A DNA stretch of 64,000 nucleotides, from NCBI RefSeq assembly GCF_051903065.1, contig NZ_CP178438.1, one strand, 5' to 3'. Of the stretch, positions 9,670-11,346 are shown piece by piece. The notes beneath the pieces are model-generated. The model was given only the letters and a program-made list of their open reading frames with translations, searched no databases and was not told the origin of the DNA. A program made the translations under genes and the position numbers. Positions within the stretch are counted from its first letter, which is position 1. Each line of letters begins with the position of its first letter. Origin of the DNA: Escherichia coli. GTDB taxonomy: Bacteria; Pseudomonadota; Gammaproteobacteria; Enterobacterales; Enterobacteriaceae.

Positions 9670-11346
9670 ATGACAGATGACATCCTGAACACCACACAAA
9701 ACCCCGATGAACTGCGCCGTCTGGCAACAGCGCTGCTGACGGCACAGGCATGCGAATATGAGCAGCGCCTTCATAACCTGAATACCGTCAACACCACGCT
9801 GGAACAGCGCCTCCATAACCTGAATACCGTCACCACCACGCTGGAACAGCGTATCCATGACCTTAATGCCGCCATGCAGGCAGAAAAAACCGCATATGAA
9901 CAGCGCATCCGGGAGCTGGAGGAGGCCCTGAAGCTGGCCCACCAGTGGCGCTTCGGGCGTAAAAGCGAGCGCCTCCCGGCCAGCCAGAAAACACTGGCAG
10001 ATGAGGACGCGGCCAGCGATGAGGCTGATATCACCCGGCAACTGAGCGACCTGCTGCCGGTGAAGGAGAAAACCGGGAAGAAGCCGGCCCGTCACCCCCT
10101 GCCGGCACACCTGCCGCGACAGGAAACCGTACTCATGCCTGAGACCGGTAGCACCTGTCCGGACTGCGGAAGTGAAATGCGACATATCCGCGACGAGGTG
10201 AATGAGGTGCTGGAGTATGTACCGGCACACTTCGTGGTGAAACGGACCGTGAGACCGCAGTACAGTTGCCCGTGCTGCGACACGGTGCACAGTGCCGTGC
10301 TGCCGCCGGCAGTCATCGACAAAGGGCAGCCGGGTCCGGGTCTGCTGGCGCAGGTGGTGACCGCGAAGGTGCTGGATCACCTGTCACTGCAGCGGCAGCA
10401 GAAGATATACGCCCGTGAAGGGGTACAGTTGCCGGAAAGCACGCTGACGGACTGGTTCGGGCCGACGGCGGCGGTGCTGTCGCCGCTGGCGGCAGCCCTG
10501 AAACGTGACCTGCTCAGGCAACCGGTGCTGCAGGCGGACGAGACGCCGCTGCAGATACTGGATACGCGGAAAGGGAAAGTCCGGAAAGGGTACCTGTGAG
10601 CATACGTGAGTGCGGCGGGCAGTGCCCGGGACATCGTGGTGTACGACTGCCGTCCGGGGCGTGCGGGGCAGTATGCGTGTGAGATGCTGAGCGGGTGGTC
10701 GGGGACTCTGGTGGCTGACGGTTATGCCGGTTACCGGGCGCTGTTCCGTGACGGGCAGGAAGGGGCCCCTCCGGCGGCACCGGGTATCTGTGAGGCGGGG
10801 TGCATGGCGCACGTGCGCAGAAAGTTCATGGAGCTGTACAGAATGAACGGCAGTCCGGGGGCGAAGGAGGCGCTGAAACAGATACGGGCGCTGTATATCC
10901 TGGAGCAGACCATCCGGCAGCGTCCGGCAGAGCAGAAATGGCGATGGCGACGGCGGTACGCGAAGCCGCAGATGGAGGCGTTCCACAGCTGGCTGAGGGC
11001 GACGGAAAAGACGAGCGCGCCGGGTGGCAGGCTGCACGGTGCGGTGACGTATGCCCTGAAGCGTTGGCCGGCGCTGGAAACATACCTGAATGACGGACGG
11101 GTACCGCTGGACAACAACCGGAGTGAGCAGATGATGCGTCCGGTGGCGCAGGGGCGGAAGTCATGGCTGTTCGCGGGTTCGCTGCGGGGAGGAGAGCGGC
11201 TGGCGGAGCTGCTGACGCTGCTGCACACGGCGAGGCTGAACGGTCTGGAGCCAGTAGTCTGGCTGCGTGATGTGCTGGAGAAGCTGCCGTCATGGCCGGC
11301 GTCCCGGCTGGATGAACTGCTGCCTTACCGCCATCCGGCGGACTGA
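9670..11346 (+). pseudogene. tnpC: IS66-family TnpC transposase interrupted by in-frame TGA (10597-10599)
   Basis: Two ORFs (9670-10599, 10606-11346) are in the same frame; stop falls in ...KGYL*AYVSAAGS... where IS66 transposases have a conserved GYLW motif; zinc-ribbon CPDCG...CPCC present. Confidence 0.8.

Follow-up and report, generated by a model that had tools for sequence, protein, structure and literature searches.

A 14-codon in-frame tandem duplication of variable copy number in the predicted N-terminal helix of an inactivated IS66-family transposase gene

The stretch of Escherichia coli DNA analysed here, 64,000 nucleotides in length and referred to as the window, carries a complete IS66-family element of 2,525 bp, which is bounded by inverted repeats of 23 bp and flanked by a target duplication of 8 bp. 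This element hosts the repeat that is the subject of the present study, and its parts are indicated below.

8869 to 8876, plus strand: left 8-bp target-site duplication, GTTGAATG, the identical 8-mer being found on each side of the element
8877 to 8899, plus strand: left terminal inverted repeat, GTAAGCATCCGGTGAACTCGCAT, of which 23 of 23 nucleotides pair with the right end
8976 to 9263, plus strand: tnpA, intact open reading frame of 95 aa from the ORF list; the identical gene in RefSeq is an IS66 accessory protein TnpA
9257 to 9595, plus strand: tnpB, intact open reading frame of 112 aa, overlapping tnpA by 7 nt (Pfam TnpB_IS66, E = 1.4e-31, and annotation)
9670 to 11346, plus strand: tnpC, pseudogene of an IS66-family DDE transposase (Pfam on the read-through translation; RefSeq "internal stop")
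10597 to 10599, plus strand: in-frame TGA at codon 310 of tnpC, the "internal stop" of RefSeq, where the intact relative on plasmid pSB109 has TGG (Trp, in GYLWAYV)
11379 to 11401, minus strand: right terminal inverted repeat, pairing with the left end
11402 to 11409, plus strand: right 8-bp target-site duplication, GTTGAATG, the same 8-mer as on the left

IS66-family elements have terminal inverted repeats of approximately 20-30 bp that start with GTAAGC, and an 8-bp target duplication. The window element shares with the IS66, IS679 and ISEc8 type the gene order tnpA-tnpB-tnpC, the tnpA/tnpB overlap, the TnpB_IS66 domain and the four TnpC domains, as well as the GTAAGC start of the inverted repeats and the 8-bp target duplication. 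In the read-through translation of tnpC, Pfam matches were obtained for LZ_Tnp_IS66 (residues 82-152, 1.9e-13), zf-IS66 (162-204, 1.1e-15), DDE_Tnp_IS66 (218-509, 1.7e-91) and the C-terminal element (516-553, 4.3e-15), all four above the curated cut-offs; the tnpA product had no Pfam match. With these four domains, tnpA and tnpB upstream, and the inverted repeats and duplication at its ends, the window element is a member of the IS66 family, but a defective copy, since the transposase frame is interrupted and the element hence lacks what defines an autonomous one. From other IS66-type elements it differs by the nonsense codon in tnpC and by its fixation at one chromosomal site. A near-identical protein is labelled "ISSfl3 OrfC" by one source, a label that we treat as a lead only.

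The element is set in an E. coli genomic island riddled with IS elements, where it interrupts an IS21 remnant. Among 5,426 complete E. coli genomes, approximately 157 carry it at 99% identity or more, as a rule in a single copy, and the genomic context was the same in every copy examined.

The pseudogene state of tnpC had been missed by the first-pass annotation. The N-terminal open reading frame of 309 aa that precedes the TGA encodes the helix, the LZ domain and the zinc finger without the DDE domain, and is uninterrupted on more than 1,000 contigs. Three further disruptive lesions were observed in the sampled haplotypes, all of them downstream of the TGA, and the N-terminal frame itself is frameshifted in two variants (P0003 and P0011). 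An opposite-strand open reading frame of 346 aa (9340-10380) runs across the repeat; we regard it as a shadow ORF, the tnpB-tnpC region being GC-rich.

Near its 5' end tnpC contains a tract of related 14-codon units, in the frame that starts at 9670. The units, assigned by reading the sequence and its translation, are as follows.

9760 to 9801, plus strand: repeat unit 1, EQRLHNLNTVNTTL, with G3, T12 and A32
9802 to 9843, plus strand: repeat unit 2, EQRLHNLNTVTTTL, with A3, C12 and C32, identical to unit 1 at 39 of 42 nt
9844 to 9885, plus strand: degenerate unit 3, EQRIHDLNAAMQAE, sharing 23 of 42 nt with unit 1 and 25 of 42 nt with unit 2
9898 to 9939, plus strand: an older fourth module, EQRIRELEEALKLA, after a four-codon spacer (KTAY), sharing 26 of 42 nt with unit 3

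The first-pass annotation had described a 42-bp tandem duplication at 9760-9885 within the coiled-coil region of an IS66 transposase, consisting of two near-identical 14-codon units followed by a degenerate third. This description proved exact: the coordinates and the peptides were reproduced, the mismatches between units 1 and 2 fall only at unit positions 3, 12 and 32, and the DDE_Tnp_IS66 match of the same reading frame places the tract in-frame within tnpC. The fourth module was absent from that description. Tandem Repeats Finder reported the tract as 9763-9871 (period 42, 2.6 copies, 89% matches, score 169), and the sole other array in the window with a score of at least 80 was a tRNA gene array. 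The probability of at least 39 matches in 42 is approximately 1.6e-20 per comparison and approximately 2e-12 when corrected for 2,000 offsets at each of 64,000 positions, and the likelihood that units 1 and 2 are similar by chance is negligible. For at least 25 matches in 42, as in the degenerate unit, the probability is approximately 1e-5. Misassembly of the window as the origin of the repeat was ruled out, because the tract is common to approximately 150 complete genomes, which align with the whole of a 431-bp query around the repeat at an identity of at least 99%.

At the protein level the repeat corresponds to TnpC residues 31-72, which lie N-terminal to, and outside, the Pfam LZ_Tnp_IS66 domain. 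AlphaFold2, run on the single sequence as a monomer, predicted one continuous helix for residues 12-96, with pLDDT values of 95-98 for residues 21-90. Along this helix the heptad d positions are occupied throughout by Leu or Tyr (L23, Y30, L37, L44, L51, L58, L65), and the a positions by L34, N41, L48, T55, I62 and M69. For residues 43-70, 87.5% of the a and d positions are hydrophobic, compared with 5% elsewhere. Weak Pfam matches to the coiled-coil families BBP1_C and MAD were also obtained over the repeat stretch, and a sequence search of the PDB returned no solved homologue of TnpC. From the heptad periodicity, with Leu at successive d positions, and the predicted continuous helix we infer that the N-terminal helix would form a leucine-zipper-like coiled coil, in line with the coiled-coil region of the first-pass annotation. 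Since the heptad register is clean, one unit equals exactly two heptads, and gain or loss of a unit would keep the register.

The number of units was compared among independent relatives; such a comparison among homologues had been proposed together with the first description of the repeat. Unit numbers are given below as near-identical units plus the degenerate unit. The closest intact copy resides on pSB109, a Salmonella IncC plasmid; it is 2,484 bp long and 97% identical, is flanked by a target duplication of its own (GAAATTAC), encodes a TnpC of 544 aa and carries 1+1 units, the single unit being identical to unit 1. Relative to pSB109 the two-unit tract of the window thus has one extra unit, which is not pinned to unit 1 or unit 2 and which adds 14 residues to the N-terminal helix. 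A chromosomal relative from E. coli SY038, at 83% identity, is shorter here than the window copy by exactly 42 bp (1+1), and three more distant relatives (P0014, P0016 and P0017) have the degenerate unit only (0+1). The degenerate unit is kept in all close relatives of the window element. In the relative P0039 everything up to the fourth module has been lost, and this module served as the deletion endpoint.

Two near-identical units are not restricted to the window copy. An element on a Logan contig (L028), retrieved with the full-length read-through protein as query, intact and 90% identical, with a full-length TnpC and the target duplication TACCGAGA, also has 2+1 units, and its unit-specific substitutions differ from those in the window. 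The unit-to-unit distances between the two elements amount to 6 differences under either pairing, and are therefore uninformative as to whether the duplication is shared or occurred a second time. The architecture of inverted repeats and target duplication recurs in pSB109 and L028, with different target duplications. As 1+1 and 2+1 are both found in elements with intact reading frames and fresh target duplications, both helix lengths seem, on these sequences, to be compatible with an active element.

The first-pass annotation had itself named the reading that would count against a variable repeat, i.e. that the transposase lineage acquired both units long ago and has kept them fixed, with invariant copy number. 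In favour of such constancy, all of the approximately 150 complete E. coli genomes are 2+1, and the 126-bp tract was unchanged in the seven complete E. coli genomes checked, which span four haplotypes. These genomes, however, carry one orthologous insertion and thus constitute a single sample of the element. Among the homologues the number of units varies, with 1+1 in pSB109 and SY038, 0+1 in others and still fewer in P0039, and one-unit alleles occur at the window's own locus (see below). On the sequences compared, invariance is refuted, and we regard this reading as extremely improbable.

In another clade, comprising sequences from Sodalis, Pectobacterium and Yersinia, a separate tandem module of 21 residues is present in zero, one or two copies, and all linkers of this clade have the same length modulo 7. 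The heptad-module step is hence 14 aa in the window's clade and 21 aa in the Sodalis/Yersinia clade. Family-wide, the spacing modulo 7 is constant per clade (81/67/53 in the window's clade; 20/34/41/48/55/62/90 in another). As evidence for a constraint on register this pattern is suggestive only, the sequences being phylogenetically non-independent.

Copy number also differs at the window's own locus. Public assemblies contain proteins that have the premature stop of the window copy and are 14 residues shorter. Thirteen contigs exhibited a precise 42-bp loss at the locus, every one of them from a short-read or draft, Logan or metagenome assembly; the sources include the assemblies GCA_036911275.1, GCA_958309135.1, GCA_050029455.1 and GCA_049464615.1 and the runs ERR11525781 and SRR19512106. 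The contigs share the window's flanking genes, with approximately 99.5% identity beyond the ends of the IS, and are therefore alleles of the same insertion. Their single unit falls into three crossover classes, G3/T12/A32, G3/T12/C32 (a hybrid of units 1 and 2) and G3/C12/C32, as expected if 42 bp had been deleted by crossing over within stretches of identity measuring 18, 19 and 8 bp, respectively.

Four haplotypes can be distinguished at the locus by linked SNPs and 1-bp indels. The unchanged two-unit tract is found on all four haplotypes among complete genomes, and each haplotype is also found with two or three of the one-unit classes. Repeated duplication could not have regenerated the same internal differences between the units, which makes two units the ancestral state of the locus; the N-type one-unit allele was ruled out as the ancestral form, because identical two-unit alleles occur on all four haplotypes. 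Taken at face value, the distribution of classes over haplotypes implies at least nine independent deletions. By class these are distributed 4:3:2, compared with 3.6:3.8:1.6 expected from tract length. With 2+1 and 1+1 at one and the same locus, and a hybrid junction unit among the products, the tract qualifies as a variable-number tandem repeat.

The one-unit alleles are rare. The common 2+1 product was found on at least 1,000 contigs, compared with roughly 10-15 for each main one-unit product, and no one-unit allele was present among the approximately 150 complete E. coli genomes with the element. A synthetic query designed for three near-identical units likewise detected no such expansion in complete E. 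coli genomes. Instability is thus low on the population scale, and the alleles that show it at this locus come from draft data. The first-pass annotation had proposed a possible slippage or recombination hotspot that changes the length of the N-terminal coiled coil. A site of this kind is borne out by the 2+1, 1+1 and 0+1 relatives and by the recurrent, precise 42-bp losses, but the word "hotspot" is relative, as none of the approximately 150 complete genomes has a changed copy number.

Since all one-unit contigs come from draft, Logan or metagenome assemblies and none of the complete genomes is one-unit, it could be argued that these alleles are artefacts of short reads or of assembly, that the repeat is stable, and that only the ancient differences between lineages are real. 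Several observations speak against this. Each one-unit allele requires 11-22 31-mers, and at least 1-12 21-mers, that are missing from the two-unit allele; a collapse in the de Bruijn graph as the origin of the one-unit alleles was ruled out on this ground, as novel k-mers are needed at every k of 21 or more. The contigs were built by several assemblers from 13 different samples, and some of them were found again, as identical contigs, in 2-4 samples. The three classes are moreover proportional to the length of the identity tracts. Finally, at a true frequency of approximately 1-3%, zero in 150 genomes is not an unlikely outcome. We therefore consider an artefactual origin quite unlikely.

Taken together, it is in our judgement very likely that the tract is a true in-frame duplication of 14 codons in the predicted TnpC helix, unstable through misalignment, and neutral in this dead IS66 copy. 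According to this proposal the helix would be built of four related 14-codon modules, neighbouring modules of which may misalign during replication or repair so that whole modules are gained or lost. Each such step would lengthen or shorten the helix by two heptads (approximately 2 nm), with reading frame and heptad register kept. The NLNTV-unit and the degenerate unit both start with GA(G/A)CAGCG, at a distance of 42 bp from each other, and the first duplication could have arisen by mispairing between these two starts. The window element is an old, fixed, non-autonomous copy, with intact ends and target duplication and a nonsense codon at position 310 of tnpC, in which the duplication would persist as a neutral and mildly unstable minisatellite.

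Whole-unit differences in copy number and hybrid junction units are present in the alleles themselves, and the mechanism, as judged from these products, is probably RecA-independent slippage. Efficient RecA-mediated recombination needs roughly 25 bp of identity, and the identity tracts at this locus, at 8-19 bp, are below that length, which argues for RecA-independence. Lovett and colleagues have reportedly described RecA-independent deletion and duplication at tandem direct repeats in E. coli. The present locus resembles such slipped misalignment in its adjacent direct repeats, in the exact loss of one unit, in the recurrence of independent events, and in crossovers spread over stretches of 8, 19 and 18 bp, none of which reaches the RecA minimum of approximately 25 bp. 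It differs in that the mechanism is read from the products, and in that no expansion beyond two units was seen.

The neutrality of the repeat in the window copy follows, in our interpretation, from the state of the gene: tnpC is truncated at codon 310, and the extra two heptads are therefore without present effect on the transposition of this copy. The repeat has no present function there. It might nevertheless be held that the number of units is under selection, either because the length of the coiled coil tunes the oligomerisation or the partners of TnpC, or because the 309-aa fragment regulates transposition. The occurrence of 1+1 and 2+1 in intact elements with fresh target duplications would agree with this, as would the indels, which are always whole multiples of a heptad both in the window's clade and in the Sodalis/Yersinia clade, and the 309-aa frame, which was found open on more than 1,000 contigs, with the three extra lesions all downstream of the TGA. 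On the other hand, misalignment of 42-bp modules gives in-frame, heptad-multiple indels regardless of selection, frameshifted N-terminal frames do exist, and the contrast between disruptive mutations upstream (0 of 4) and downstream (3 of 7) of the TGA is not significant. Selection on unit number thus appears very unlikely. We likewise give very little weight to the more far-reaching proposal that the TnpC helix is a length-tunable coiled coil which sets pairing, or the spacing between the N-terminal motif and the DNA-binding region, with functionally insulated IS66 sub-lineages and the 309-aa product as a length-specific inhibitor of related active copies.

With neutral misalignment as the preferred explanation, the tract can be placed among known systems. 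It behaves like a small variable-number tandem repeat that is maintained by misalignment. Streptococcal M proteins and the stalks of trimeric autotransporters are length-variable coiled coils made of heptad-multiple repeats, and share with TnpC the gain and loss, within the gene, of whole-heptad modules with the register preserved. Those proteins are surface antigens, whereas here the protein is a transposase, the gene is dead at the locus, and there is no sign of diversifying selection. With phase-variable simple-sequence loci the tract has in common that copy number differs among near-identical alleles, but the unit here is 42 bp and in-frame, no expression is switched, and none of the approximately 150 complete genomes varies. 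With an in-frame unit, rare change and a gene that is inactive in any case, it is not a contingency locus.

In the literature on the IS66/TnpC leucine zipper, ISSfl3 and the IS679 coiled coil we found no description of the 42-bp polymorphism. What is observed is ordinary repeat instability, a fresh instance of a well-known type of event, in a dead gene. At the window locus it would be of little consequence, the repeat serving as a neutral marker that occasionally sheds a unit. With three crossover classes, the 42-bp indel offers a clean natural case of misalignment at short homologies, and it could confound SNP-based typing or the comparison of assemblies in this E. coli island. For the family as a whole, we know of no structure of an IS66 transposase. 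The length of the TnpC helix steps by whole heptads in intact elements, and the 0+1, 1+1 and 2+1 forms therefore constitute a ready-made natural series of helix lengths, which may be of use in studies of the assembly, oligomerisation and activity of IS66 transposases.

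In tnpC, codon 310 is an in-frame TGA, which makes the repeat-bearing transposase gene a pseudogene, a point absent from the note. In other haplotypes of the dead gene, represented by the contigs L013-L027, further lesions were found, all three of them downstream of the TGA, and the tnpA and tnpB reading frames are open in every copy examined.

Lesions in tnpC (window coordinates)
10597-10599: in-frame TGA, codon 310; TGG (Trp) in the intact plasmid relative
10665: 1-bp deletion, seen in L013-L027
11128: C>T, splitting the downstream ORF, seen in L013-L027
11186: 1-bp deletion, seen in L013-L027

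In several E. coli genomes, for example L004 (NZ_CP019267.1), the match to tnpC covers its first 83 nt and nothing more. The gene is cut there 8 bp upstream of the repeat, with the sequence from window position ~9753 onward missing, and a DUF932/antirestriction/YeeU module follows at the junction. The endpoint of the deletion adjoins the repeat and lies outside the repeat itself.

Apart from the 42-bp repeat, a tRNA array is the only tandem repeat with a high score in the window.

Other features in the window
5962-6671: second, unrelated IS remnant, 95% identical to a transposase fragment on L003
11649-12313, minus strand: remnant of a Mutator-type transposase (IS256-like, Transposase_mut), in split form and directly downstream of the IS66 element
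12459-13134, minus strand: three short ORFs, whose weak matches to RVT_1 and group II intron maturase (GIIM) all fall short of the Pfam cut-offs
63083-63480: three tRNA-Val(tac) genes in tandem, then tRNA-Lys(ttt)

The three short ORFs, labelled hypothetical proteins in RefSeq, look like a broken-up group II intron reverse transcriptase. The transposase fragment matching the second remnant adjoins an IS66 relative on the E. coli plasmid pVTB432v-1 (L003). A short RefSeq-annotated IS66-family transposase fragment is located upstream of the GntR-family regulator gene.

An intact IS with 90% identity to the element is present in L028 (positions 1715-4220; Logan ERR4400455), with the target duplication TACCGAGA. 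Its full-length TnpC likewise has 2+1 units, and their unit-specific substitutions differ from those in the window. The 2+1 state of L028 goes back either to a duplication of its own or to an old one shared with the window element.

The TnpC clade of Sodalis, Pectobacterium and Yersinia has a tandem module of its own, the 21-residue LEQQT.KN..QE..ASTLRS., found in 2, 1 or 0 copies among the proteins P0177, P0184 and P0188. In this clade the distance from the N-terminal motif to WRFG is 20, 34, 41, 48, 55, 62 or 90 residues, and each of these values leaves a remainder of 6 when divided by 7.
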